A stretch of 64,000 nt of DNA from an uncultured virus (IMG/VR IMGVR_UViG_3300024353_000008) (taxonomy: Duplodnaviria; Heunggongvirae; Uroviricota; Caudoviricetes), in IMG/VR virus record IMGVR_UViG_3300024353_000008, one strand, 5' to 3'. The notes under the pieces were generated by a model. That model did no database searches. It saw only the letters and a program-made list of their open reading frames with translations, and was not told the origin of the DNA. Positions 8,036 to 43,629 of this stretch are shown one piece after another; position 1 is the stretch's first letter, and every line of letters begins with the position of its first letter. The position numbers and the translations under genes were made by a program.

Positions 8036-8575
8036 ATGCCAAAGACAGGAAAGCGTAGAAGTCAGTCTCAGATACTCCGTGATCGAAAGAGGATAGGCGA
8101 ACTATACCTCCAAGGTCGTTATCAACACGAGATTGCCGAAGAACTCGAACTATCGACTGGTACTATATCCAATGAGTTGAAGCATTTGCATAAGGAGTGG
8201 CAAGAATCTGCTGCAACTGACATCGAAAAGAGGAAATCAGAGGAACTATCCAAGGTTGACAACCTCGAACGCACCTACTGGGAAGGTTGGCTTCGATCCT
8301 GCGAGGATGAAGTCACTACCACTGAACGATTCTTCGAGGTCGATGGTGAACAAAAGTCGGAGACTACTGTCAAAACCAAGCCACGAGATGGCAGTACAAA
8401 GTTCCTCGATGGTGTGGATAAGTGTGTCAAGCAACGCTGCAAGATACTCGGTATCGAAGCACCTACTGAGCATGAAGTAGGTCCACGACTTGGAACGGTT
8501 CTGGCTGCACTGCCTGATACACTAAAGTCCGGTGTGATGGATGTGTTGAGTGGGAAGGTAGAGGAGAAGAAGTGA
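8036..8575 (+). CDS. terS: terminase small subunit (HTH)
   Basis: N-terminal HTH (ELYLQG..QHEIAEELELSTGTISNEL), RCKILGIEAP motif, position upstream of TerL. Confidence 0.7.
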   Translation: MPKTGKRRSQSQILRDRKRIGELYLQGRYQHEIAEELELSTGTISNELKHLHKEWQESAATDIEKRKSEELSKVDNLERTYWEGWLRSCEDEVTTTERFFEVDGEQKSETTVKTKPRDGSTKFLDGVDKCVKQRCKILGIEAPTEHEVGPRLGTVLAALPDTLKSGVMDVLSGKVEEKK

Positions 8576-9696
8576 GTCAAGTACGTGTCTTTAACTATAT
8601 ATCTGTTGAGTCTGCTTGTCCACTGTGTGGCAGCGATGATACTCTAAGAGTTGTAGAGATTGACAGTCTGTACTCTGTTAGGTGTGGAGCATGCTGGATA
8701 CATGGACCAATGGACAAATGTGGCACGGTTGCTGTTGAAAAGTGGAATGCACTAAGTGGTCAAGACGAGACAATCGTGAATGATCCTTTTATAAAGAGGT
8801 GTTGTCCGAATCCTAAGTGTGGTTCTGATGATGTAGTGTTACGAGCAATACCTATTGCCCGTCAGACAGTCTGGCGAATTGCATGTCAGAAATGTCGATT
8901 GCAGGGGCCTCTCCATTCCGTCCAATGTGAAGCAGTACACGCTTGGAATTCTTTGCCTCGAATAGACGGTGAACAAGAGAGAATCTATAATCCTACTCTT
9001 GACATGAACAATTGCCTCAATCAAGAGTGCGGACAGGAACCTGTCTTGATAGAGCGTGATGGATTCTGTCTAGTACAGTGCAATGGTTGCTTCATGTGCG
9101 GCCCGCTTGATAAAGACGTCTATCGTGCTGTTGAAAAGTGGAATGCACTGTCTGAGTCTCCATCACAAGAATGTGCAAATGAATCGCAGGTAGAGGAACT
9201 TGATGGAGTGAATTATTGTCCCATGTGTGGAGAATGTCCAGATGTGCAGGTTGATTGGTGGCCTTCAGGCGGAAGTTCTGCTCAAGTCTCATGTGAGTGT
9301 GGGATGCAAGGGTTGATTGGCCTGAGTGAACAGGAAGCGATAGAGTATTGGAATATGTTGTCTGGGTCTGATGGTGGATGGATCAGTGTGGAGGATAGGT
9401 TGCCAGAACCTCGTGCGACTGTGCTTGTACGAGTGATAGAAGAAAACGAGCCACAAGTTGCATACTTGCAGGATGACTATAAGACTTGGTATGTTCAACC
9501 TCTAATTACTGTGTGGTATAAAACAGTGGAGATGGTTACTCACTGGCAACCACTGCCTAGTCTACCCGCAGTCTGCAATCGAGAGAGTACAGAACAAGAG
9601 CAAGTACCCAATACCCAACAAGCCAAAGCTCTCCTCGACTGGTTGGCTACAGGTCTCGATGCTTGGCGAGAGATTCTAGGTGAGGAAAAGGATTAA
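8572..9696 (+). CDS. multi-Lar (restriction alleviation) Zn-ribbon repeat protein with DUF551
   Basis: 4x CPxCG...CxxC..GP....AVExWNAL, then WISVEDRLPE...VTHWQPLP. Confidence 0.75.
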   Translation: MSQVRVFNYISVESACPLCGSDDTLRVVEIDSLYSVRCGACWIHGPMDKCGTVAVEKWNALSGQDETIVNDPFIKRCCPNPKCGSDDVVLRAIPIARQTVWRIACQKCRLQGPLHSVQCEAVHAWNSLPRIDGEQERIYNPTLDMNNCLNQECGQEPVLIERDGFCLVQCNGCFMCGPLDKDVYRAVEKWNALSESPSQECANESQVEELDGVNYCPMCGECPDVQVDWWPSGGSSAQVSCECGMQGLIGLSEQEAIEYWNMLSGSDGGWISVEDRLPEPRATVLVRVIEENEPQVAYLQDDYKTWYVQPLITVWYKTVEMVTHWQPLPSLPAVCNRESTEQEQVPNTQQAKALLDWLATGLDAWREILGEEKD

Positions 9697-11342
9697 TGGG
9701 AGTACCGTCGTCTATCGTCACTCCTGAAGCGCAGGCTTTGGCAGACAACATTCTTGCTCTCTATCCCAAGAGTGAGATCAAGAAAGCTCTTGCTGAACTG
9801 CGCGTTAGTCCGAAGGAGTTGCGCAAGTACCGTGACGATCCTGCTGGATTCGGGATAGAGGTATTAAACGAGTACTATACACCTGATATTGTTAGAGTAA
9901 TGGAGTCGGTTCGGGACAACAGAATCACGATTGCGAGGAGTTCAAACCAGATCGGAAAAAGTCATTGCGCAGCACGGCTTGCTCTTTGGTTCCTGCTGAT
10001 GTGGGATGATTCTCGTGTCTACACTACGTCTGCTCCGCCAGAGGAAAACTTGAAGCGCATTCTCTGGGGTGAGATTGGATCATTGATAGGCAAACGGCCT
10101 GATTTGGTGTCCAACTTTAAGGTTCGCACGATGCTTGTAGAGCGGTCGCCTGATTCATTTCTTACTGGTGTTGCTATTCCAACCACTGGTACAAAGGAAG
10201 AACGACAGGCTAAATGGAGTGGGAAGCATGCTCCACACCAATTCATCATTGTGGATGAGGGTGATGCTGTACCAGATGAGGTCTATCTAGGTATTGAGTC
10301 GTGTATGTCTGGTGCTCACGTTCGTCTGTTGATCATGTTCAATCCGCGTCGTCGTAGCGGTACCGTGTGGCGAATGGAACGAGACGGAGAAGCTAATATA
10401 GTAGAGCTATCAGCCTTCAACCATCCCAATGTCCTGTATGGTGAGGACCGGGTTCCTGGCGCGGTAGATCGTGAGACTACCGTCCGACGTATCAACGAGT
10501 GGACGCGCCCGCTAGTCGAAGGTGAGAGACCAAGCGAGAAATGCTTCGAGATTCCACCTTTCTTGGTCGGTACGACTGCCAAGAGTCCACAAAGTAGTGA
10601 ATATCCTCCGCTTCCTGCTGGCTGGCGAGAGGTCATCAACCCTGCTTTCTGGTACATGGTGCTCGGGCTCTATCCACAACAGGACGAGAATCAGCTTATC
10701 AGCCAAGAGTGGATCAACAACGCGCGCGTGAGATGGGACACTTACGTAGCTGCCAATGGAATGGTTCCACCAGAAGGTGTTAGACCATTGCAAGGCGTGG
10801 ACGTTGGCGAGTTTGGACCGGACCCGAACGTGTCCTGTTTCCGCTATGGTGGGTGGGTAGATCGGTTCGTCGTGTGGAATGGGCAGGATACGGATGCAGT
10901 TGCAGACAGGTCTCTGGAACTGTATAGGGCAAAGAACTGTCTAAGAGCATACGTTGACGCGACCGGATACGGGAGCAACGTGGCTCCAAAGATGAGACGC
11001 AACAATGCAAATGCAATAGGTGTCAAGGTTGGCGAGGGACCGACGACCAGGCCAGCGGATATGGATGCAGACTTTCTACAGTTGCGGGATCAACTATGGT
11101 GGTCTTGTCGGGAATGGCTGAGAACTGACCCTGGCGCTATGCTTCCTCCTGATGAGATGCTGATTGAGGAATTGCTTGCTCCGACGTACAGCTATCACGG
11201 GACAAAGCGGAAACTAAAGATCATGGACAAGAACACGATGAAGGACATTCTGAAGAGATCGCCCGATAGAGCGGATAGTCTATGCCTGACCTTCGCTCCT
11301 ACAGGTGGGTGGACTGTAGGCGTTGCGCAGATAGGGAGATAA
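9696..11342 (+). CDS. terL: terminase large subunit
   Basis: Walker A-like SSNQIGKS, Walker B IIVDEG, FNP coupling motif, nuclease GVDVG / VDATGYG / SPDRADSL. Confidence 0.92.
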   Translation: MGVPSSIVTPEAQALADNILALYPKSEIKKALAELRVSPKELRKYRDDPAGFGIEVLNEYYTPDIVRVMESVRDNRITIARSSNQIGKSHCAARLALWFLLMWDDSRVYTTSAPPEENLKRILWGEIGSLIGKRPDLVSNFKVRTMLVERSPDSFLTGVAIPTTGTKEERQAKWSGKHAPHQFIIVDEGDAVPDEVYLGIESCMSGAHVRLLIMFNPRRRSGTVWRMERDGEANIVELSAFNHPNVLYGEDRVPGAVDRETTVRRINEWTRPLVEGERPSEKCFEIPPFLVGTTAKSPQSSEYPPLPAGWREVINPAFWYMVLGLYPQQDENQLISQEWINNARVRWDTYVAANGMVPPEGVRPLQGVDVGEFGPDPNVSCFRYGGWVDRFVVWNGQDTDAVADRSLELYRAKNCLRAYVDATGYGSNVAPKMRRNNANAIGVKVGEGPTTRPADMDADFLQLRDQLWWSCREWLRTDPGAMLPPDEMLIEELLAPTYSYHGTKRKLKIMDKNTMKDILKRSPDRADSLCLTFAPTGGWTVGVAQIGR

Positions 11343-11875: not shown

Positions 11876-12871
11876 GTGAATCAGTCGAACACATATACAC
11901 CAAGCACTGCAATGGCAAGATGTCCAAACTTTGAGTGTGGGAAAGAGGGTGTAAGTCTCATTGATATTGATGGCTTTCGTTATGTAGAGTGTTCTGGCTG
12001 TTACATGCGAGGACCGCGAGACACCGACCCTTACCGTGCAGTAGAGCTATGGAATGCTCTTTCTGGAATAGAGCATGGGTTGGGAGGTAGTTGTGGTGAA
12101 CAAGACAGCATATACAGTGTGGTCAAAAGCAACATGACTAGTTGTCCAAATCCTCTGTGTGGAAGTAGGAACGTGGGTATAGTTCCTACTGCAACGTGTG
12201 CATTCTACTACATAAAATGTCATGATTGTTACATGCATGGTCCGCATGGTGCCAATTCTATTTCCGCTATTGAAGCATGGAATGCCCTCTCCAATCCCGA
12301 TCCTGGCTGGATAAGTGTCAGTGATCGGTTACCGCACCCTGGCGAGTACGTCCATGCTTTCTCGCAGAGAGACGGTCACTTGGTGGCATTTAGGGCTCTT
12401 TCCACAGGAAAGTGGAGAGCAAGGTTGCTGGATGGCCTTCACTGGCACGGACATGACGATGACACGATAACTCACTGGGAGTATTTCAGGTCAGCGCCAG
12501 ATTTGCCAGAAGAAACAACCACACTATCGGAATCTGGCTGGATAAGCGTAAGAGACAAACTACCAGAGAATGGAACTCGTGTATGGATTAACCCAAAGAA
12601 TGCTACAGGCAAGGCACTCACAATGGGAATCACATATACGGATGGTGCAACATGGACAATCATTTCTCCTGGTAGCAACGGATATGTAGTCAAAGCCGGT
12701 AAGAGATTTAGTCCTACTCACTGGCGACCAATTAAGGTTGTACCTTTTCCATCAGATGAGCCAGAGAAATATAAAGTCTCTGACAATGATGTGTCTGGGC
12801 CTGGCTGGACAAGCGTGGAGGATTGGTTGCCGAAGAAACGACATTCTACGCGATGGAGTATGAGGAGATGA
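11876..12871 (+). CDS. Lar-repeat (x2) plus DUF551 (x2 and a truncated third) protein, paralog of 8572-9696
   Basis: CPN..CG...CxxCYM.GP....AVELWNALS; GWISVSDRLP...THW. Confidence 0.72.
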   Translation: MNQSNTYTPSTAMARCPNFECGKEGVSLIDIDGFRYVECSGCYMRGPRDTDPYRAVELWNALSGIEHGLGGSCGEQDSIYSVVKSNMTSCPNPLCGSRNVGIVPTATCAFYYIKCHDCYMHGPHGANSISAIEAWNALSNPDPGWISVSDRLPHPGEYVHAFSQRDGHLVAFRALSTGKWRARLLDGLHWHGHDDDTITHWEYFRSAPDLPEETTTLSESGWISVRDKLPENGTRVWINPKNATGKALTMGITYTDGATWTIISPGSNGYVVKAGKRFSPTHWRPIKVVPFPSDEPEKYKVSDNDVSGPGWTSVEDWLPKKRHSTRWSMRR

Positions 12872-26542: not shown

Positions 26543-28582
26543 CTAGAATATGATCTTGACGACCCGCTGGCCGTCCACTCGTGCCAGTACACTGTTTCTC
26601 TTTGTCGAGCTAAACCCTATGCCCGACAGTTGCTTCTCTGCATGTTCAACGCACATCTTGCTACCCAGTGCAGCAAAGACGCGCTTGTGTTCCATAAATG
26701 CCTCCTGTAGAAACTCATTGTAAAACCCGTTTGGGCTATCGTCATTCACACAGCCAGCGAGAAAGAACATATAGTGCCTGTTCCCGATTCCAGACTGGTC
26801 GTCCCAGTAGTTCGGAGAGTAGGTGACAGTAGAAACTGGTTGCCACTGATTCGTCGTCATGCCCCAGGCTTCCTTTGCGCTGGTTGTCGTCGCTAGTGAT
26901 TCTACAAACTTAATGCCGTCACGTCGTGAGAACTGCACCTTGGCAACTGTGACATTCTCGTTCTGACTTAGTTCATTGGGATAGTCATACTCATAGATTT
27001 GCCCACCGTATTCGATCTCAGCACGGAATCCTGTCCTGCCGCCATTATGAGAGTAGTTGTGGACAAAGAAGTGATATACACCTTCTCTCATCTTGTCCAA
27101 GCGTGCCCAGGTAATGTTCTCGACAGCGACCTTGCGTCCAGGGTTAATAATGTCAACGTCCAGCATACCAGTAGAAGCATGCATGTGTCCCTTATTGCTA
27201 AAGTAGATGTGACTGCCTCCTGCTGGCTCAATGCAATGGGCGTCAAAGTCGTTTGGGTTATCAAGTTCCTCGTTCCACTGAATGGAGAACCGCAGGACAC
27301 CTTCGACGTCTCCACCGAGTGCTTTGACGCGGGCCTTCATCGAGTCCGCCACGTTTCCAGCATAGGCCCAGGAAAACCCATTGTCCCACTTGAACAGGCT
27401 TGGTGCATCGCTGTTCTGTGGAGCAATGAGAGAGACGAGGTTTCCCTGGTGGCGATTCTCCAACAACACCTCGACGCTGGCTGCACTTGGTAGCATCTCA
27501 CTGATGAATGTCTCAATCGCCACACCCTGTGCATGCTCAAATCGGCGTGGGTCTAACGTTGCTTCCCGTGCCAGTTCCTCGAAAATACCCAGTCCATCCA
27601 TTTCTTTCTCGGCGTCCTTGTTGGCCCAGATGACATTAGTAATGTTGATGTCATCCAGTCGGGCAAATCTACGCCCCAGAGAATCGGTCAGTCCAAGACG
27701 TTCGACAGTTGCCTGAGCATCCTTGACCATCTTGGCAGTAAAGATAGCCTTGGGTCTCTTGTAGTTGGTAGGTGCAACGATGTGCTCATAGCGACCGACC
27801 GCTTCCAGGATGTCAACGTTGGCAGTAATGTCCTGCAAGAGAACGCCGATGGAGTGATTCCTGATGCGAGATATTGCACCGCTAATCAAAGTGGATTGTT
27901 TCCAGCAGTAGTTGTTGCGCAACCCGTCAGACAGTTGCTGATACTCATACTGCAATCCTCGAAACATCGTGAGTGCACCCTGCCACTCCTCGCCACGATA
28001 AAGGCTCTTTTCAGCAATCAAGTCCAGGATGGTCCCAGTCGCATCCACAGAGATTTCTTCCAACGACCGCTGGAATACTTCCTTGCTTGTCCTGGCTTCT
28101 CCCATCAAGTCAGGAATGGTCTTGTGAGAGTCTGTCACAAAGTGAGTTGGCAGGTCAACCCGAAAGTGCTGCCAGGTATGAACTGAACCGTCGTCAAGCA
28201 TCTCGTGGTTCTCGTCAGTGCCAAACGCACTGTCCTTGGTGACGAACAGGTCGCAGACGGGCTTGTTGCTAATATGCTCTGCCAGAGCATCAACAACGGG
28301 TTGATACGTGTCACTTCCGGCATCAAAGTCCCAGATGGTCACGACCTCATTGTCGTCGTCAATCATTACAACATTACCAAGCCGCTTGATGAAGTGACGA
28401 CAACAAGAGCAATCATGAGCGCGACGTTCTCGGTAGACCTCGTTTGTCCCAGGCGGGAAGCTGTTGAGATACAATTCCCACAATTCGTCCCTGTCCACGT
28501 CTACGACGAACAGATGGTTTTGTCCGTCGAGCATCGTAGCGATGTGTTCTTGATGCCTTTGCTTGAACTGCTTGAAGTTCAT
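26543..28582 (-). CDS. conserved 679-aa phage protein with YfaP/DUF2135-like domain
   Basis: HDCSCCRHF; LRFSIQWN..DFDAHC.EP...LDVDI...VENITW; SPNYW...GNRHY. Confidence 0.75.
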   Translation of the reverse strand: MNFKQFKQRHQEHIATMLDGQNHLFVVDVDRDELWELYLNSFPPGTNEVYRERRAHDCSCCRHFIKRLGNVVMIDDDNEVVTIWDFDAGSDTYQPVVDALAEHISNKPVCDLFVTKDSAFGTDENHEMLDDGSVHTWQHFRVDLPTHFVTDSHKTIPDLMGEARTSKEVFQRSLEEISVDATGTILDLIAEKSLYRGEEWQGALTMFRGLQYEYQQLSDGLRNNYCWKQSTLISGAISRIRNHSIGVLLQDITANVDILEAVGRYEHIVAPTNYKRPKAIFTAKMVKDAQATVERLGLTDSLGRRFARLDDINITNVIWANKDAEKEMDGLGIFEELAREATLDPRRFEHAQGVAIETFISEMLPSAASVEVLLENRHQGNLVSLIAPQNSDAPSLFKWDNGFSWAYAGNVADSMKARVKALGGDVEGVLRFSIQWNEELDNPNDFDAHCIEPAGGSHIYFSNKGHMHASTGMLDVDIINPGRKVAVENITWARLDKMREGVYHFFVHNYSHNGGRTGFRAEIEYGGQIYEYDYPNELSQNENVTVAKVQFSRRDGIKFVESLATTTSAKEAWGMTTNQWQPVSTVTYSPNYWDDQSGIGNRHYMFFLAGCVNDDSPNGFYNEFLQEAFMEHKRVFAALGSKMCVEHAEKQLSGIGFSSTKRNSVLARVDGQRVVKIIF

Positions 28583-28613: not shown

Positions 28614-28642
28614 ATTATACCATGTGTTTTATGGTCTGTCAA
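28614..28642 (-). promoter_or_regulatory. consensus sigma70 promoter TTGACA-17-TATAAT
   Basis: reverse strand ttgaca gaccataaaacacatgg tataat. Confidence 0.85.
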
Positions 28643-28893: not shown

Positions 28894-29205
28894 CTAGTCG
28901 GAAGGTAATAGTTTCTGTTTCAACAATCGTCTGGCAACCTGCATACCCTCGCGGAAGCCAATCTCCAGGCACTCACCTTCCAAGGCAAGGTATACAGTAC
29001 TGATACCATCGTTAATGGCCTGCTTATAGACTGCTTCGGCAAGCCTAATTTTGTCCTCGGCATGTTGAACAGCATCAGTGACGTTGCTTGGCCATTCGCC
29101 GGGAGGAAGGCCCGCATCCTCCATGTCGATGGCACGCTTGGCTTCCTTCAGTCCACAATTGTGCTCGGCTCGGTAATCCTGTATCCTCTTGATCTTACTA
29201 TCCAT
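28894..29205 (-). CDS. hypothetical protein with bL12-CTD/UBA-like N-terminal motif
   Basis: KIKRIQDYRAEHNCGLKEAKRAID; GGAGG RBS. Confidence 0.55.
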   Translation of the reverse strand: MDSKIKRIQDYRAEHNCGLKEAKRAIDMEDAGLPPGEWPSNVTDAVQHAEDKIRLAEAVYKQAINDGISTVYLALEGECLEIGFREGMQVARRLLKQKLLPSD

Positions 29206-29298
29206 ATTGAACCTCCCGTTGACCTTCGGCGTGATTTCTCATCTCCAGCGCATGACCCGGCGCGGGGCTATGGCGCCGCGACTAATGCGGCGGCTCAC

Positions 29299-29925
29299 TC
29301 AACACACTGCTATCGGATCTCCCTCCTCTGGCAGAGGATTGCTCGCCCCCTCCGCCGTTGGCTCTATGACGTAGCCGTAGGAGCCGACGAACTTAATCCT
29401 GTAGCTGGTGCGCCCGGTCATCGAGGAGCGGGTGTAGACGCGGGTGGCCGCGTCGTACTCCTCTACGTGGGTGCCCATCCCGTCCACCCATCCCCAGTCC
29501 TGGTCCTCGTCGAGTGACCAGATTTCTTCATCATCTTTCCAGGTGATGGCCTGGATGGTGCGTGCCAGGTCGGAGCACCCGACACCGATGACACAGGAAT
29601 CCGTGCCCCCAAACCCACTTCCTCCAATGTAGATTTGGTCCGTCACCGTCTCCGGGTAACCGGAGAAGAGCGACAGCTCCTGAGCGATCCCTGCGTCAAA
29701 GACACCGACCACGAGGTCGCACCCGACGACCTTCGCCCGTTCCTCGTGCGCGAAGCGCGAAAAGTCCTGATGTTCCTGCCACCGCTCGTGGCTACCCTTA
29801 GAGCCGGTGGCGGAAATAGCCGCCTGGGCAGCGCGGACGACACCCAGGAAAGCCAGGGGCCTCCACTCGCACGCATCTAGGAGCCCGCGCGCGCCCTTGA
29901 AAAACCTCTTTGCTACGGTATTCAT
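29299..29925 (-). CDS. hypothetical protein (GC-rich cassette)
   Basis: GGAGGAGG RBS; ATG 29925. Confidence 0.6.
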   Translation of the reverse strand: MNTVAKRFFKGARGLLDACEWRPLAFLGVVRAAQAAISATGSKGSHERWQEHQDFSRFAHEERAKVVGCDLVVGVFDAGIAQELSLFSGYPETVTDQIYIGGSGFGGTDSCVIGVGCSDLARTIQAITWKDDEEIWSLDEDQDWGWVDGMGTHVEEYDAATRVYTRSSMTGRTSYRIKFVGSYGYVIEPTAEGASNPLPEEGDPIAVC

Positions 29926-29974
29926 CGTCTCTCCTCCTCCGGGCACTGCGCCCGGCTAGCGCCCTGCGGCGCGT

Positions 29975-30202
29975 CTAGTCATCTGTCACGATTCGCGCGC
30001 CTGGGTGATCCTGCGCAAACTCGACCAGGTATCCCTCTGCGCACTCCACCATCTCAGGCGTATCCTCGTTGGAGAAGCGCAGGCGGCGGGTGACGGTCTG
30101 CGTCTCGGTGACTGGTTCCGTGCCGCCGCCGTGCGCGACCGAGACGGCGCGGTGCTCGACGATGCTGCTTTGCTCCTCTTCCCACTCGTAGAATATAGCC
30201 AT
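29975..30202 (-). CDS. small acidic hypothetical protein
   Basis: AAGGAG RBS. Confidence 0.6.
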   Translation of the reverse strand: MAIFYEWEEEQSSIVEHRAVSVAHGGGTEPVTETQTVTRRLRFSNEDTPEMVECAEGYLVEFAQDHPGARIVTDD

Positions 30203-30276
30203 TTATCTCCTTCATCTGTTTCCACTTCTCGCGCCAGGTCGCCACACGGGTGACGGCCTGGGGTGGGGGCGGAGAC

Positions 30277-30474
30277 TCACACCTCCCTGTAATCCACTTC
30301 CACGCGCTGGCCGACTTCGAGCGTCAACTCCGCGATCTGCTCAAGCTCCTGGCGCGGCGCGTCATCCGCCAGATTGAAGATCACGACGTCAGTGTCCAGG
30401 GAGCCGTCCCCGGACACGAGCGAGGTGGAGAGGCACTTTCGTGCCAGTCCCCGGTCGAAGACTTTCCATTTCAT
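30277..30474 (-). CDS. small hypothetical protein
   Basis: AAGGAG RBS. Confidence 0.6.
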   Translation of the reverse strand: MKWKVFDRGLARKCLSTSLVSGDGSLDTDVVIFNLADDAPRQELEQIAELTLEVGQRVEVDYREV

Positions 30475-30528
30475 CGTCTCTACTCCTTCGTCTACGCGCC
30501 GGGGCTCGGGTGCCCGGCGTCTCCTGAT

Positions 30529-30762
30529 TTAGTCGTCGTATGCGCTACTGAGCACGTAATCCATCGCCGCCAGTTGTTCGTCGGTCGGGCACGGCCCGCG
30601 ATTTTGCGCTGCTTGTAGGTTCGTGCGCTGCGTGAGCAATTCCTCGATCTGTGTGTTGATCCGGTCCAGTTGCGCCACGCCACCGGCGTGGACGTCCTGT
30701 AATTCTGCGCCCACCCTGGCGATCTTTGCGTTGATTTCGTTTATCGTCATTTTCTCGCTCAT
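30529..30762 (-). CDS. small coiled-coil protein
   Basis: GGAG RBS directly after the twister-like motif; MSEKMTINEINAKI. Confidence 0.6.
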   Translation of the reverse strand: MSEKMTINEINAKIARVGAELQDVHAGGVAQLDRINTQIEELLTQRTNLQAAQNRGPCPTDEQLAAMDYVLSSAYDD

Positions 30763-30778
30763 TTCAATTTCTCCCTGT

Positions 30779-30845
30779 AGCCCCTCACTCTCCCCGGTCT
30801 CTGTGCCGGTCGCGCGACTTGGGACGCGCCTCTGGTGGGTTAGCC
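30779..30845 (-). ncRNA. twister-like ribozyme candidate (P1-type with P5)
   Basis: GGC-UAA-CCC-ACC...GCGCG-UCCCAAGU-CGCGC...CCGG/CCGG...GAGGG-GCU; P2 is weak. Confidence 0.5.
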
Positions 30846-30886
30846 TGCGCGGTTTTGGCCGGGTCCGCGCGAACCCGGGGGGGGGC

Positions 30887-31072
30887 TTATTTGCCGCACT
30901 TGCACTTGTCGCAACTCTCGCCGCACTCAGCGCAAGTGAAGCGTGAGAGGTATTCAGTGTCTTGCCAGACGACCTTGCCGCCCGCGTAGATGCGAGTGGT
31001 GCGGCGCTTCTCGTTCCACTTGTGCCAGCCTGCTTCCTTTGCACTTCCGCCGTAGTTGCTCGTCTGTTCCAT
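30887..31072 (-). CDS. small Cys-rich protein
   Basis: AAGGAG RBS directly after the hammerhead; CAECGESCDKCKC. Confidence 0.6.
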   Translation of the reverse strand: MEQTSNYGGSAKEAGWHKWNEKRRTTRIYAGGKVVWQDTEYLSRFTCAECGESCDKCKCGK

Positions 31073-31094
31073 TGTCTCGTCTCCTTGATCTTGT

Positions 31095-31151
31095 AGGGTT
31101 TCGGTCCTCCTGGGACCATCGTCAGGCCGGTGTGTTTCTCCCGGCGACCCT
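31095..31151 (-). ncRNA. type III hammerhead ribozyme
   Basis: AGGG-UC|GCCGG-loop-CCGGC-CUGACGA-U-GGUCC-CAGGA-GGACC-GAAA-CCCU: all three stems and the core are present, GUC cleavage triplet. Confidence 0.88.
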
Positions 31152-31284
31152 GTCTCCCCCTGCGCCTCGCTCGTCTCATTTGCTCCCGGCTCCTCGCTCC
31201 TTTTCGGGCTCCTCGGGTTCTTCACTGCGGGCGGTCGGTTTGGATTTTATTCTGTTGTTCAGGTTCTCTTTCTTAACTGTCAAT

Positions 31285-31313
31285 ATTATAGCGGAAAACG
31301 CCCGGTTTGTCAC
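31285..31313 (-). promoter_or_regulatory. sigma70-type promoter GTGACA-17-TATAAT driving the ribozyme-containing cassette
   Basis: reverse strand gtgaca aaccgggcgttttccgc tataat. Confidence 0.7.
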
Positions 31314-32096
31314 CGGTAGAAACTACTGATCTTTTGAACGAGTTTTCCCCGTAGTAACTACGTAGGATAACCGTTCTGTTTTCGCGCCGGACTTTGTTAC
31401 TTTTTCGGCACAATCGCCTCCACGCTCGTGCTCCGCCATCCGCACGCCGGGCACACGAACCAACCTCCTTGTCCATTGCACGGGATGCAGTCGCAGTTGC
31501 AATCACGGCAGTCGTCCCAGGTGGGCTCGTCGTGCGGGCAGGTGGCGCGGGCAGTGGAGCCCACGCCGTCGCAGTGGGCGCACAGCTCCTCGCTGAGTGG
31601 GGCGGCGCAGGTGGGGCAGGTTTCCACTGGAACCATTGAGACAGCCCATATCAAACTGATGGTAGGAAAACCATCATAGACATAAGGTTCCCCGACAACT
31701 GCATGGCCCATCGTTGCGTCCTTGTTCTGATAGGTGAACGCTGTGAGGTACAAATCATTGATGAGAGTGTAGGAGTATCCTTGCCCCTGGTAGTGACCGC
31801 CATTCCCCCATTCGTCTGTGTCCACATGCCAAACTTTGATGTGACGTCCTGGAAATGCGATAGGCAAAAGCGGGGGGACATGCCAATCTTTGACCCCTTT
31901 CAGTTCGTACCCCCATGTTTCAGGGAGAGGCGTTTGATAACCAAGGGCCAGCCTCATCGTTGATATAGCACGCTGTAGGCATCGCCCTCCATGTGAACCG
32001 GCTACGCTTAGCATAGTTTTCTCCTTCATTCCTCTAATCTGCCACCAGTCTACCACAGAAAACAGATTCGCGCATCGGTAGAAACTACTGATCTTT
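31314..32096. repeat. 21-bp direct repeat cggtagaaactactgatcttt at 31314-31334 and 32076-32096 (operator-like)
   Basis: exact match; internal GTAG-aaa-CTAC palindrome; each copy lies next to a divergent promoter. Confidence 0.8.
31397..32014 (-). CDS. hypothetical protein with C-terminal DnaJ-type CxxCxGxG Zn-finger region
   Basis: AAGGAG RBS at ATG 32014; CAHCDGVG, CIPCNGQG; GC content rises in the 3' part. Confidence 0.55.
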   Translation of the reverse strand: MLSVAGSHGGRCLQRAISTMRLALGYQTPLPETWGYELKGVKDWHVPPLLPIAFPGRHIKVWHVDTDEWGNGGHYQGQGYSYTLINDLYLTAFTYQNKDATMGHAVVGEPYVYDGFPTISLIWAVSMVPVETCPTCAAPLSEELCAHCDGVGSTARATCPHDEPTWDDCRDCNCDCIPCNGQGGWFVCPACGWRSTSVEAIVPKK

Positions 32097-33884: not shown

Positions 33885-36473
33885 GTGTCGATTGCTCAGA
33901 TTCGATCTGGAAATGTAGTCAGACGAGATGACAAGCAGTATCGTGCTGTTGGTTCTGCAACTGTGTCTGACGAGGTCGATGTAAAGTCCTTGCTTCCTCT
34001 GCTAGAGGTTGCGGACAAGGCTTTCGATGAAAAGGCAGTAGAAGGAATATGGTTGCTCCTGTTTCTGCAACCAGAAAATGCACAGACACTAGCAATTGAT
34101 GATCCTACAGCAGAATCGCCAGAGAAGCTACACGTCACGGTTGGCACGGTGGATGCGAGCACGGTGGATGGTAAGCAAGAGATTGTACAGCAGGTAATTG
34201 AGGAAGCAGCTAGCAGACTACCTCCGGTAGTGGGTAAGATTGGCGGATATGGTTCGTTCGTGTCAAATGGTGACACAGTACCTATCATTGCATTGTTCGA
34301 TTCACCAATGTTGACAGACTGGCGCAAGCAATTGATTGATACATTGCAAGCGGTAGGCGTAGATGTGGTGCAGGACCATGGCTATCAGCCACACATTACC
34401 CTGGCGTATGCAGGCAGTCCTGTGGCTACCAAGATAGATGATAGAGAGATTGTGCTGGATAGGTTGTCTCTGGTGTGGAATGGAGAGAGACAGGACTATC
34501 CATTGCAGGGAAGTGAGGAGCAAAGCATGAAAGAAATAACTGTGCTCGTTAATGACGAGCAAGACGAACAACTTGACGAGTGGGAGAAAGACTTTCTCTC
34601 TGACCTCGATACTGCAAGCAAGGAAGTCACTAAACGTGTTGGCAATCAAGACCTTCCTGCATCTGCCTTTCTCGTGGTCGGTGATCCAGAGGCAGTGATG
34701 ACTTGGCATTTGCCTGTGCGTAAGGCGAACGGTGATGCTGATAGACGCAGAATTGGTGCTGCTTGGGCAAGTTTGCATGGTGGCTACCGAGGTCAGAAAT
34801 ACGCTGGTCCCAACAAAGAACAGGCGATTACCAAACTGCGCAAGGTATACGAGGACGAGGAAATGCCTCTACCTGGGACGAAGGAAGAAGAGAAGTCTCC
34901 CGTAGTAGAGATGGACAGGGCCTTGATTAAGAAAACTGCTGGTGAGGTTGAATCGCAGATCAAATCCGAGGACGAAAAAGCAGGTCGTCGTGTACGTGGC
35001 GACAAGGTTGGACTTGTCAAAAAGATTCTGTCCGAGTTCGACGATGTGAAAGCAGCATTGACAGAGTTTCTCGGTTGGGCAGATTATGCTGACGGACAGG
35101 AAAATGACAGACAGGAGAATCCAGAATCACCTGAAGGATTCCTCTCTTGGCTAGAATCCAATGTTGCTACCAAGGCTCTCGAAGATGCAGAGGAACACGG
35201 TTCGTCATTCGTCGCGTTCAAGGCAGCAGACGGACAAGACTGGTTGCTAACCTTTTCCACTAACGCATTCGAGGACCGCGAGGGAGAAATCTTTGCAACC
35301 AAGGCAATCGAGGAGTACGTTGCTCGTCACGAGGACGAGGACATAAAAGGCGAGTACCAATTTTGGCACCTACCGGGCTCAAAGTTCGGTGACATTCTAT
35401 TTCAGGGTATGGAAGGTAGATTCCTAGTCGAAGCAGGCCCGTTTGACGATACGCCCACAGGACGTGCATTCAAGGAATTCTTTTCCGAGAATCCGCGTGG
35501 GCACTCGGTTGTAGCTCCTGATGGTTGGGGATGCTCCCACAAGTACGAGTACAGAAGCAAAGATCGAGAAGATGGTGTGTACAATTGGTTCGATAAGAGT
35601 GAGACAACTGTTCTCCCGCTATATGCTGCGGCCAATGAGTACACCGCCCCACTATTTATTAAGGAGCAAGTACAGATGAATGACAGACAGAAAGCGGCTC
35701 TCAAGCTGATTGGTGGAGACGATCTAGTTTCCATGGTCGAAACCGTAGGCAAGAAAGCCACACAGGAACTGGAAGAGACTGTTGGCTTCAAGGCTGGCAA
35801 CTATGCGGCTATGGTTCGCAAGGTTGCCCAGGATACGGAAGACGAGGCAGTCAAGGCGCAGTTGATGAGCATTGCGTCTGATATAGATGATTCTTACCCG
35901 GAGCAGAAGAAGAAAGAATCCGATCCCGAGGTCGAGCCCGAGGACGAGAAGGCTGCTGGTGGTCCCGCTCTGGGTAAACGTCTCCGAATGCTCGCTGGTC
36001 GCCTAGAAGGCAGTGCCGCCGCGGAACTGAATAAGATCGCGGCAAGCCTGATGGGTGGCGGAGAGATGGAGGATGACGAGGAAAAGTCTGAGTCGAAGGA
36101 ACTGACGGAGTTTGCCGATGCGGTTGGTGAGGGCTTCAAGGCTGTGATCGAAGGCTATCAGACCGAGAATGCAGAAGTCGCTAGTGCTATCACCGCTCTT
36201 GCCAATGCAGTCAAGGGTGTGCAGGAACAGATCGAGAGTCTGTCCCGCACGGACGAGGCAAAGATCGCTGAAAAGGCTGCTGATACTCCCGCTGCATCTC
36301 TGCGCGATATGGTTGACCGTGCTATCGGTTCTAAGGATACGCGGGTCGATGGTCGATCCACTTATGCCAAGGATGGCCCACAGCAAACTCAGCCTGTGGT
36401 AGATGGTCAGACCGGCATCTCTCTGATTGATACCTTCGTTTCTGGTGCAGACCAGAAGCAGCTAGGTCGCTAG
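33885..36473 (+). CDS. 2H phosphoesterase + small linker domain + prohead protease + scaffold polyprotein
   Basis: HVT (34131) and HIT (34392) 2H motifs; TNAFEDREGEIF..WH..GCSH..ETTVLP..AANEYT protease; acidic coiled-coil C-terminus; internal AAGGAG-ATG at 35676; directly upstream of MCP. Confidence 0.78.
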   Translation: MSIAQIRSGNVVRRDDKQYRAVGSATVSDEVDVKSLLPLLEVADKAFDEKAVEGIWLLLFLQPENAQTLAIDDPTAESPEKLHVTVGTVDASTVDGKQEIVQQVIEEAASRLPPVVGKIGGYGSFVSNGDTVPIIALFDSPMLTDWRKQLIDTLQAVGVDVVQDHGYQPHITLAYAGSPVATKIDDREIVLDRLSLVWNGERQDYPLQGSEEQSMKEITVLVNDEQDEQLDEWEKDFLSDLDTASKEVTKRVGNQDLPASAFLVVGDPEAVMTWHLPVRKANGDADRRRIGAAWASLHGGYRGQKYAGPNKEQAITKLRKVYEDEEMPLPGTKEEEKSPVVEMDRALIKKTAGEVESQIKSEDEKAGRRVRGDKVGLVKKILSEFDDVKAALTEFLGWADYADGQENDRQENPESPEGFLSWLESNVATKALEDAEEHGSSFVAFKAADGQDWLLTFSTNAFEDREGEIFATKAIEEYVARHEDEDIKGEYQFWHLPGSKFGDILFQGMEGRFLVEAGPFDDTPTGRAFKEFFSENPRGHSVVAPDGWGCSHKYEYRSKDREDGVYNWFDKSETTVLPLYAAANEYTAPLFIKEQVQMNDRQKAALKLIGGDDLVSMVETVGKKATQELEETVGFKAGNYAAMVRKVAQDTEDEAVKAQLMSIASDIDDSYPEQKKKESDPEVEPEDEKAAGGPALGKRLRMLAGRLEGSAAAELNKIAASLMGGGEMEDDEEKSESKELTEFADAVGEGFKAVIEGYQTENAEVASAITALANAVKGVQEQIESLSRTDEAKIAEKAADTPAASLRDMVDRAIGSKDTRVDGRSTYAKDGPQQTQPVVDGQTGISLIDTFVSGADQKQLGR

Positions 36474-41902: not shown

Positions 41903-42259
41903 TTAGATGATGAAAGCAAGGACCATGAAAGAAATCAGGATAAGCAAGGGAATTGCCATGAGAATACCAACAACCAACTGTGCAATGTTCACTCGTGGCT
42001 TGAGCAACCCGTGCTCACTCTGCCTGTACTCAGTTGCAACGATCTTTGTGTGATTAGCGATCTTTGTGTGATTAGCTCTAATATCTGTCTCTATCATCCA
42101 AGACGGTTCTGGGTCCATTGCTGTTCCAAACCGGTAAACCGTGGTTCGTCCTTCGTCTTCCAGATTGCCAACTGCACTGACGAAATGTTCCTGACCACCG
42201 AATACGCTTGAGGAACCGATGGATGCTGTGACAATCCATATACTGCCAATCTCGATCAT
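41903..42259 (-). CDS. hypothetical protein with C-terminal TM
   Basis: AAGGAG RBS; hydrophobic C-terminus. Confidence 0.5.
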   Translation of the reverse strand: MIEIGSIWIVTASIGSSSVFGGQEHFVSAVGNLEDEGRTTVYRFGTAMDPEPSWMIETDIRANHTKIANHTKIVATEYRQSEHGLLKPRVNIAQLVVGILMAIPLLILISFMVLAFII

Positions 42260-43629
42260 TGTGTCTCCTTTTCGTCTAGCCACTTTAGGGCTGAATCTAA
42301 GTCTGTTATCACTCCGTCTAGCTGCAACTCGAATGCTTCTTTCAGTGTGACACCAAAATGCGGTCCTGGCTTCCATTTTTTCTTGATCAGGTGACGTCCC
42401 TTCAGAATGGGTTCTGGCCCGCTTTCTTCCACTCGCATGGTCTCTGCAAGTTCCCGGATTGTGTGGATCGTTTCTGGTAATGGTGCATCGAAATCACCAC
42501 GTCCTCTGTGGTCACACTCCATCACGCGCAAGAGTTGAGTAATGTTAGCTGGCTCAAGTCTCTTTGCCAATCGACGCACAGACCTTGGTGTGGGCTTTCG
42601 CGTGTGGACGTGTACCATGTGCTCACGCACGAGAAGTGGTACGACTTCCTGTAACCACAAAGGAGCACCGATGCTTGCCAAGAACTGTTTGGCTAATGGT
42701 TCTCCTGCCCCGTCGTGTCCGGGAGAGCGAATGTGTCCGTCGTCACAAAGTTCTGTTGTGCTTACCTTGCCTACATCGTGCAGGAGGACAGCGAAGAAGA
42801 GAATGAGACGTTCTTTGTCGTCCAGATCAAACCTAGTCGAGTAATCAAGTGCTTCTCTCAGATGTTGACGCACATTTCCTTCCGGGTGCCATTCTGCGTC
42901 TTGCTCAATAGAAAGGCAGTTTGCCAAAGCAGGAAAGTGCCAAATCCACCCAGTGCCGGATAGGAAGTTAAGTGCGGCAGATGGTTTTATAGCATAGAGT
43001 GCTAGCTTTTCCCACTCATCCCAAACTCTCTCGACTGGAAGTTTTTTGTAAGCATTGATTAGTTGATTGCATAGAGTGATGGTGGAAAGGGATGCAGTAA
43101 GATCAAATCTTCCAGCAAACTGCATTCCTCGAAGAACCCTAAGAGGATCATCTGCAAACTGTGTCGATGTATGTCTAAGTTGTTTTCCTTTCAGGTGGGG
43201 AATTCCTCTGTATGGGTCAATGTACTCATTTGTCAATGGATTATAGGCAATGGCGTTGACTGTAAAGTCTCGCCGTGCCAATGCCTGTACTATGGTCATA
43301 CTAGAATCAACCGATACATCGAATCCCTTGTGTTCTTCTCCCGTCTTGGTCTCTGTACGAGGCAAAGAACAGTCAACAGTGATTCCATCAACTTTGACCT
43401 TGACCACAGAGAAACTTGCACCGTGTTCGTCAATGACTTCTCCGAACTGAGAGAGCCAAGGCGTTAGTTCCCGTAGGTTGCTTGGCCCAAAGAATTCTAC
43501 GTCTAGGTCTTTGGAGTCTATTCCTAGCAGTTGGTCACGCACCCATCCACCAACAGCGTAGACTTTCCAGTCCCGTTGTTGTTCGGCTGCCTCTGCTATT
43601 CTGTGGAGAATCGTGTGTTCTGATGTCAT
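42256..43629 (-). CDS. cca: CCA-adding tRNA nucleotidyltransferase (class II NTase + HD domain)
   Basis: VGGWVRD.LLG...DLD, RRDFTVNA, DDPLRVLRG..FA, H.EG..., LLHDVGK, GPHFG. Confidence 0.85.
   Translation of the reverse strand: MTSEHTILHRIAEAAEQQRDWKVYAVGGWVRDQLLGIDSKDLDVEFFGPSNLRELTPWLSQFGEVIDEHGASFSVVKVKVDGITVDCSLPRTETKTGEEHKGFDVSVDSSMTIVQALARRDFTVNAIAYNPLTNEYIDPYRGIPHLKGKQLRHTSTQFADDPLRVLRGMQFAGRFDLTASLSTITLCNQLINAYKKLPVERVWDEWEKLALYAIKPSAALNFLSGTGWIWHFPALANCLSIEQDAEWHPEGNVRQHLREALDYSTRFDLDDKERLILFFAVLLHDVGKVSTTELCDDGHIRSPGHDGAGEPLAKQFLASIGAPLWLQEVVPLLVREHMVHVHTRKPTPRSVRRLAKRLEPANITQLLRVMECDHRGRGDFDAPLPETIHTIRELAETMRVEESGPEPILKGRHLIKKKWKPGPHFGVTLKEAFELQLDGVITDLDSALKWLDEKETQ

Follow-up and report, generated by a model that had tools for sequence, protein, structure and literature searches.

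Prophage hammerhead ribozymes have been described that flank genes and cleave in vitro as well as in vivo (Perreault et al. 2011, PMC3088659). In three Legionella strains, ardA lies directly downstream of such a hammerhead, and in a halovirus the hammerhead is cut within three nucleotides of the mapped 5' end of an early transcript (PMC3088659). What purpose the hammerheads of bacteria and phages serve is described as an open question (PMC6155905; PMC6765202). A further element of this kind is present in the 64,000 nucleotides of the IMG/VR virus record IMGVR_UViG_3300024353_000008 from an uncultured virus of the Caudoviricetes, which in the following are called the window (the whole stretch of DNA that was analysed). 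On its minus strand, at 31095..31151, there is a type III hammerhead with an extra U between the core positions A9 and G10.1, recognised by its sequence, its predicted fold, a scanner of our own and a covariance model termed R1. It is probably a genuine phage variant of the type III hammerhead in the 5' leader of a minus-strand cluster of small genes that have no detectable relatives. With the phage and prophage hammerheads of PMC3088659 it shares that it is DNA-encoded in a phage, lies on the sense strand between genes and has a proposed role in transcript processing, but it is a single copy and not part of a cluster, and it is situated behind a promoter of its own. In the covered sections of that paper, an insertion between A9 and G10.1 is not discussed, although the alignments of its Dataset S1 may already contain the variant.

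Two other systems resemble the locus in the way the ribozyme is placed. RiboJ is an engineered insulator that consists of the sTRSV hammerhead and a hairpin between promoter and ribosome-binding site (RBS); in E. coli, transcript abundance rose about twofold on average and protein two- to tenfold, and its authors tentatively credit the terminal hairpin (PMC6206723). Like RiboJ, the window copy is a type III hammerhead between promoter and RBS, the cut of which would discard the leader and leave a 5' end that bears a hairpin. RiboJ differs in being synthetic and in having an added hairpin of 23 nt before the RBS, whereas the window has 8 unstructured nucleotides there, with no hairpin predicted. 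The likeness concerns the way of working and not membership in a family. The glmS ribozyme is likewise a self-cleaving RNA in a 5' untranslated region that leaves a 5'-OH on the coding fragment (PMC6765202). It differs in having another fold and in depending on a metabolite. In Bacillus, the 5'-OH product of the glmS ribozyme decays faster (RNase J1), so that "stabilised" cannot safely be assumed for an mRNA that is generated in this manner. The first-pass annotation of the DNA, made from the sequence alone, had proposed that cleavage yields a 5'-OH, stabilised mRNA for the downstream genes. The 5'-OH of the downstream fragment follows from established hammerhead chemistry, provided that the element cleaves; a stabilisation may follow by analogy with RiboJ, and its outcome would depend on the RNases of the host.

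Read along the minus strand, the element begins with the 5' strand of stem III (31151-31148), which is followed by U16.1 (31147) and C17 (31146). In stem I, 31145-31141 pairs with 31130-31126 (5 bp) and encloses a loop 1 of 10 nt (31140-31131). Then come the core box C3-A9 with the sequence CUGACGA (31125-31119) and the extra U (31118), which is the sole deviation from the consensus core. Stem II, in which 31117-31113 pairs with 31107-31103 (5 bp), encloses a loop 2 of 5 nt (31112-31108), and the core box G12-A15.1 with the sequence GAAA (31102-31099) leads to the 3' strand of stem III (31098-31095). Stems I, II and III therefore have 5, 5 and 4 bp, to which the A15.1:U16.1 pair is added, formed by A31099 and U31147 in the sequence as well as in the predicted fold, and stem II is closed by G10.1:C11.1 (G31117:C31103). 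The loops close stems I and II and stem III is open, which is the type III topology, and every conserved core position is intact. The cleavage triplet, of the form N-U-H in which H is not G, is GUC (31148-31146) with the scissile bond 3' of C31146, and the cut is predicted between 31146 and 31145. All of this agrees with the first-pass annotation, which had called a complete minus-strand type III hammerhead with stems of 5/5/4 bp, CUGACGA followed by U, GAAA and GUC, and had put the cut at the same bond. The type III hammerheads of Rfam RF00008 have in common with the window copy the junction that is open at stem III, the CUGANGA and GAAA boxes, GUC, G10.1:C11.1 and A15.1:U16.1; the window copy differs from them in its extra U, in having no recognisable loop-loop contact and in not being scored by Rfam. 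For the 66-nt element alone, the minimum-energy structure is exactly the three-way junction of the hammerhead (-22.3 kcal/mol; z = -1.74, with 12 of 200 shuffles at least as stable), and the scanner, which covers type I, II and III hammerheads, gave 31151..31095 as its single match in the 64-kb window.

An additional nucleotide at this position of the core is known from other hammerheads. The CChMVd(+) hammerhead has an extra A10 between A9 and G10.1 (De la Pena and Flores 2001, cited in PMC3705267), the replacement of which by U increased the trans-cleaving rate 3-4-fold (PMC3705267), and hammerheads of Penelope-like elements conserve a nucleotide between A9 and G10.1 (PMC4209133). The window copy shares with these the position of the insertion, but they belong to a viroid or to eukaryotic retroelements and have other topologies or loops. 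In IMG/VR, a pattern was used that consists of CUGANGA, then U, a GGNCC stem II and GAAAC, and that does not demand stem I, stem III or the U-H site. It is found in at least 120 loci, for which 130 matches were listed, comprising 96 distinct complete hammerheads, 23 duplicates and 11 matches that could not be parsed. Among these listed matches, the 96 complete extra-U hammerheads are of type I in 85 cases and of type III in 11, each of them has stem I, stem III and the U-H site correctly placed, and the stem II pair that the pattern left free is a standard pair in 113 of 114 distinct matches. As judged from these sequences, the extra U is a widespread natural variant.

A second pattern, with a GGTCC stem II, gave at least 67 loci in JGI metagenome contigs (L152-L218), nearly all of them with AT-rich minimal type I hammerheads, and among the JGI matches listed only L177 is a clear type III copy of the prokaryotic style. 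In more than 60 of these AT-rich contigs the minimal type I hammerheads are near-identical, with the extra U, a very short helix III and in some cases an arrangement as inverted pairs; these copies resemble the hammerheads of eukaryotic Penelope-like retroelements and are unrelated to the window phage. One IMG/VR locus (L032) carries a twister-sister, a type II hammerhead, a RAGATH-5 and an extra-U type I hammerhead within about 2 kb (~386-2363).

The type III members with the extra U form a class of their own, which was collected with a reverse-complement pattern that also demands GUC and has 53 IMG/VR loci in its full listing. Six IMG/VR type III copies, not including that of the window, served to build the covariance model R1. 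Its sole match in the window is 31094-31152 on the minus strand with 42.9 bits (rough E 1e-10), and as the class scores range from 38.8 to 79.3 bits on R1, the window copy is a full-length match within the range of the class. At E up to 1e-6, R1 gave 36 matches in 57 sources, namely the window, the 53 loci, L120, L177 and L182, and these were parsed into 26 distinct type III copies including that of the window, 3 duplicates, 6 partial matches that could not be parsed as type III, and one other, namely the second hammerhead of the IMG/VR locus L240, which has no extra U. On the minus strand of L240, type III hammerheads at 697-753 and 223-276, about 420 nt apart, bracket an open reading frame (ORF) of 122 codons, a pair that resembles the gene-flanking hammerhead arrangements in print. 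In the alignment of the 26 type III copies, 95.7% of the cells are paired, and of the 17 pairs, 11 vary at both positions: stem I contributes all of its six, stem III four and stem II one. Covariation was scored at 0.645, as compared to 0.134 with shuffled sequences (none of 500 shuffles reaches the observed score) and at most 0.098 when the partners are slid against each other, and a smaller alignment of 12 sequences gives the same picture.

The most telling feature that the members of the class share is their placement before a start codon. Of the 25 IMG/VR type III copies other than that of the window, 19 are followed on the same strand, within 8-46 nt, by a Shine-Dalgarno sequence and by the start codon of an ORF of 35 codons or longer, which also holds for 1048 of 4545 control positions (23%) on the same strand of the same loci (binomial 3e-8, with relatedness ignored). 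The window copy has the same layout of RBS and start codon, at 22 nt, and 17 of the 19 ORFs that follow belong to no family of Pfam or PHROG, which is also true of the small genes of the window. In the covered sections of the open-access literature, no statement was found that extra-U type III copies regularly sit just ahead of start codons.

In GTDB contigs, with one genome per species, there are 17 pattern loci and 8 type III copies at 37 bits or more, the sources of the latter being Myxococcota, Longimicrobiales, Allorhizobium, Martelella, Rhizobium, Rhodomicrobium, Inquilinus and Planctomycetota, and 5 of these 8 copies have the RBS layout. The contig of Inquilinus limosus DSM 16000 (L279) has an extra-U type III hammerhead identical to that of a viral contig in IMG/VR (L221/L037), with a GC-rich stem I of 5 bp and an A/C-rich loop 1 of 11 nt, followed by a gene for 76 aa (phrog_4068). 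This copy, which comes from a cultured strain, is the closest in style to that of the window, where loop 1 is similarly long and A/C-rich.

Upstream of the element in the window lies a sigma-70-type promoter-like site, P2, with the sequence GTGACA-17-TATAAT (31285..31313, minus strand; 11 of 12 consensus positions), from which a transcription start near 31278 is predicted. The purine-rich 5' leader (31152..31278, minus strand) contains several Shine-Dalgarno-like runs, and its fold is no more stable than that of shuffles (z = -0.07); together with 31151-31146 it constitutes the predicted 5' cleavage fragment of ~133 nt. Behind the ribozyme, an RBS with the sequence AAGGAG (31086-31081, minus strand) begins after 8 nt and is separated by another 8 nt from the ATG at 31072 of the first small gene (30887..31072, minus strand), which encodes 61 aa with a cysteine-rich C-terminus. 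The first-pass annotation had placed the element ~135 nt downstream of a promoter and ~10 nt upstream of the RBS, and both distances hold up, with ~133 nt from the putative start to the cut and 8 nt to AAGGAG. The upstream gene, for 205 aa, is at 31397..32014 on the minus strand, and as there is no terminator-like site on this strand between its stop (31397) and the ribozyme, RNA that reads through from it would be cut also.

It is inferred from this arrangement that the element is transcribed, that it cleaves and that the cut affects the mRNA. Among the sequencing runs listed, the stretch is present in a single one of DNA, which is probably the source sample, and in none of RNA. RNA would be made from P2 (31313..31285) and probably by polymerases that read through the upstream gene as well; the ribozyme would fold as soon as its 3' strand has been transcribed and then cut itself after C31146. 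Hammerhead cleavage leaves a 2',3'-cyclic phosphate on the 5' fragment and a 5'-OH on the downstream fragment. The purine-rich leader of ~133 nt and any RNA further upstream would thereby be removed, ending in the 2',3'-cyclic phosphate, and the mRNA that remains would start with the 5'-OH of G31145, which lies at the foot of the stem I hairpin and 59 nt ahead of the RBS. The advantage would probably be a uniform, hairpin-led 5' end of the mRNA that, as with the engineered RiboJ, does not depend on where transcription starts and that may raise stability or expression. Removal of the leader during transcription is the likeliest role, and it fits because hammerheads of the same variant are found repeatedly in phage contigs immediately before an RBS and a start codon.

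Several points weigh against a functional hammerhead at this locus, and one of them is the outcome with Rfam. The Rfam hammerhead models gave no match at the gathering threshold in the whole window, and none at E up to 10 in pieces of 451 and 78 bases. The first-pass annotation had named Infernal with these models as a check of its call, and as a check this turned out to be uninformative, as comparable phage hammerheads were missed too. With 16 IMG/VR loci as a control at gathering thresholds, 11 of them with a type III copy, not one type I or III copy was reported, while in one locus Rfam recognised a type II hammerhead, a twister-sister and a RAGATH-5. At E up to 10, the type III copies were missed in three loci, one of these copies (L120 in IMG/VR, 417-470) having the consensus core without insertion. 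Because the control loci were missed as well, the negative result speaks more of the models as run than of the element, and it was discarded as evidence against the ribozyme. The class evidence has to be taken with care, since the class was gathered with patterns derived from the element, so that the core, the extra U, most of stem II and GUC agree by construction; stems I and III and the free pair of stem II were not imposed by the collection pattern. The covariation, as computed from the alignment, holds for the class and would not by itself vouch for the window locus. For this particular copy or its operon, no homologue was found in the databases searched: the DNA of the locus matches nothing in the phage collection, IMG/VR does not contain the exact 35-nt stretch of the ribozyme, and no JGI metagenome contig fits a pattern in which both loops and the core are fixed.

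How often the bare motif arises without function was estimated with 1000 dinucleotide-preserving shuffles of the window, which contained one match with stems of at least 5/5/4 and 30 matches with at least 4/3/3 (none in the first 60 shuffles). The motif is thus expected by chance about once per 1000 such windows, and since ~0.001 per window is not negligible in a large scan, in which such cases will be met, the case must rest on more than the motif. Also counting against a ribozyme, an open frame from GTG 31225 runs across the element in phase with the 61-aa gene, and it could be imagined that the hammerhead is a chance match in a GC- and purine-rich stretch, possibly inside a longer coding frame; the missing Rfam match would fit this as well. 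It is nevertheless very improbable, because features that the motif does not require agree also, namely the extra U with the GGNCC stem II (42.9 bits to R1) and the location on the sense strand with a strong RBS 8 nt behind it, a position like that of 19 of the 25 class members, and because AAGGAG at a spacing of 8 nt favours ATG 31072 as the start. Position and class-level evidence in this way add to that of the motif. The element could also descend from a hammerhead but be catalytically poor or dead in the cell, a relic that arrived with the high-GC island described below and that has little effect on the mRNA. The Watson-Crick match between loop 1 and loop 2 is at most 1 bp in the window copy, unlike in 14 of 25 class members, which have a covarying loop 1-loop 2 pseudoknot of at least 3 bp, and loop-loop contacts are needed for hammerhead activity at low Mg2+ (PMC3088659; PMC13725137). 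As the loops match in at most 1 bp, a tertiary contact for fast cleavage at cellular Mg2+ is not visible. The predicted folds add to this, as stem III, unlike the robust stems I and II, is weak and competes with a pairing between GUC and the core GAC. In a transcript that ends at 31090, the hammerhead is the minimum-energy fold with a predicted ensemble probability of ~0.49, but with 40 more downstream nucleotides this falls to ~0.19, and in two other transcript windows it is 0.03-0.09, so that the hammerhead is only a minority of the ensemble in longer transcripts; such secondary-structure predictions ignore tertiary contacts and folding kinetics. In the databases searched, no homologue was found that would show this copy to be conserved. 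On the other hand, the core is intact throughout, although decay would be expected to bring core changes, and 11 of 25 class members likewise have no pseudoknot of at least 3 bp, among them the identical copy shared by Inquilinus limosus and an IMG/VR contig. Non-Watson-Crick contacts are invisible to sequence comparison, and many natural type III hammerheads use loop contacts of this kind (PMC2632901). A relic is considered rather unlikely.

An active ribozyme might also serve the RNA on its other side, by forming the 3' end of the upstream mRNA, whereby a read-through transcript would be divided into two units, or by setting free the ~133-nt purine-rich leader as an RNA of its own. The lack of a terminator-like site between the upstream stop (31397) and the ribozyme on the minus strand agrees with such a role, as do the unusually purine-rich leader with its several Shine-Dalgarno-like runs and the proposal that long phage transcripts are processed into gene-length mRNAs (PMC3088659; PMC6765202). 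With a strong promoter between the upstream gene and the ribozyme, however, most transcripts need not contain that gene at all, the class keeps close to start codons (19 of 25 copies have one 8-46 nt behind them), which speaks for the downstream message, and the fold stability of the leader, no higher than that of shuffles, does not suggest an RNA with a function of its own, which makes an upstream role distinctly unlikely. A switch, in which the RBS is masked until cleavage exposes it, could be suspected because the 3' strand of stem III ends just 8 nt before the RBS, but leader and RBS are both purine-rich and cannot pair with each other. Predictions give the Shine-Dalgarno sequence an unpaired probability of 0.75 in the uncleaved transcript from P2, 0.72 with read-through and 0.67 after cleavage, and the AUG one of 0.57, 0.69 and 0.66, respectively, and an unmasking of the RBS was rejected; a switch is thus hardly to be believed. 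A single ribozyme acting on many target sites was rejected as well, the substrate-arm motif (with up to 2 mismatches) occurring 12 times as compared to 9.9 expected.

The window represents a large uncultivated phage genome, the terminase of which (9696-11342) is at most 43% identical to proteins of Salinibacter phages. The ribozyme lies in a high-GC island at ~29150-31700, with a GC content of 0.59-0.65 as compared to 0.44-0.50 in the flanks. One of its boundaries lies within the cysteine-rich, C-terminal portion of the 205-aa gene and the other behind the gene for 208 aa; besides this gene end it comprises P2, leader, ribozyme and five small genes whose Shine-Dalgarno sequences are strong, and none of its genes has detectable relatives. 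From its composition, the island looks like a module that was acquired from a phage of higher GC content. Downstream of the island, on the minus strand, a widely conserved phage protein of 679 aa is encoded (26543-28582; phrog_1735, function unknown), which reaches at most 53% identity with Bacillus phage proteins of the phage collection and 58% in IMG/VR. In 31 IMG/VR loci that share this 679-aa neighbour, no hammerhead of any type was found up to 8 kb on each side, and for this reason the ribozyme belongs to the island and not to the phage lineage. Directly ahead of the 679-aa gene there is a perfect TTGACA-17-TATAAT promoter with an extended TG (28614-28642, minus strand).

After the 61-aa gene, five further small genes follow on the minus strand at 30762..30529, 30474..30277, 30202..29975, 29925..29299 and 29205..28894, all of them preceded by a Shine-Dalgarno sequence of their own. 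No structured RNA was found in the 125-nt spacer behind the first gene (z = -0.49). None of these five genes has a family match below E 0.01. The 61-aa protein has no tblastn match, no relatives in IMG/VR and no homologue in a set of 5.8 billion proteins at its default length range; the 208-aa protein (29925..29299) has no IMG/VR relatives either and finds only itself in that protein set at the same default, and the upstream 205-aa protein is likewise without relatives in IMG/VR. An exact 18-nt repeat with an internal inverted repeat abuts the -35 element of P2 (31314..31331, minus strand), and its second copy (32076-32093, minus strand) lies ahead of the 205-aa gene with the same spacing to a weaker -10-like hexamer, two exact copies being present as compared to 0.03 expected. 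By its position, this repeat looks like a candidate binding site for a regulator shared by the two successive transcription units.

Some other genes of the phage encode proteins with domains of RNA enzymes. A protein of 862 aa (33885-36473, plus strand) has a LigT/2H-phosphoesterase-like (RNA ligase) domain at its N-terminus; enzymes of the 2H type act on ends with a 2',3'-cyclic phosphate. A CCA-adding-enzyme-like protein with a PolyA_pol head and an HD domain is encoded at 42256-43629 on the minus strand, and ARAGORN found no tRNA genes in the window. The large terminase gene is flanked by two paralogues on the plus strand (8572-9696 and 11876-12871), each with a Lar restriction-alleviation domain and a DUF551.

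Phage hammerheads are already established, as is the idea that long transcripts are processed by them, and the window copy is a further case of a fairly ordinary arrangement. It is a clean and simple one, with one promoter, one ribozyme and an RBS 8 nt later, which makes a direct reporter test easy. Of practical value for annotation are the dozens of phage hammerheads that have an extra U after A9, those of type III usually right before start codons, and there may be a gap in the routine annotation of phage ribozymes, as the Rfam models as run reported none of the extra-U type I or III hammerheads that were tried (L032-L151, L219-L271). A wider reading is possible, though as a whole it is still doubtful: extra-U type III hammerheads might be a portable phage cassette and a natural counterpart of RiboJ, which would travel with small accessory genes of unknown function at a fixed short distance before their start codons. 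The window copy would then stand for a subclass without pseudoknot, in which loop 1 is long and A/C-rich, to which the Inquilinus limosus copy also belongs and which would use a different loop contact, and the current Rfam models would miss the whole class systematically. If this holds true, such a cassette would give the genes that it accompanies a defined, hairpin-led 5'-OH end of their mRNA, whatever promoter or operon precedes them.

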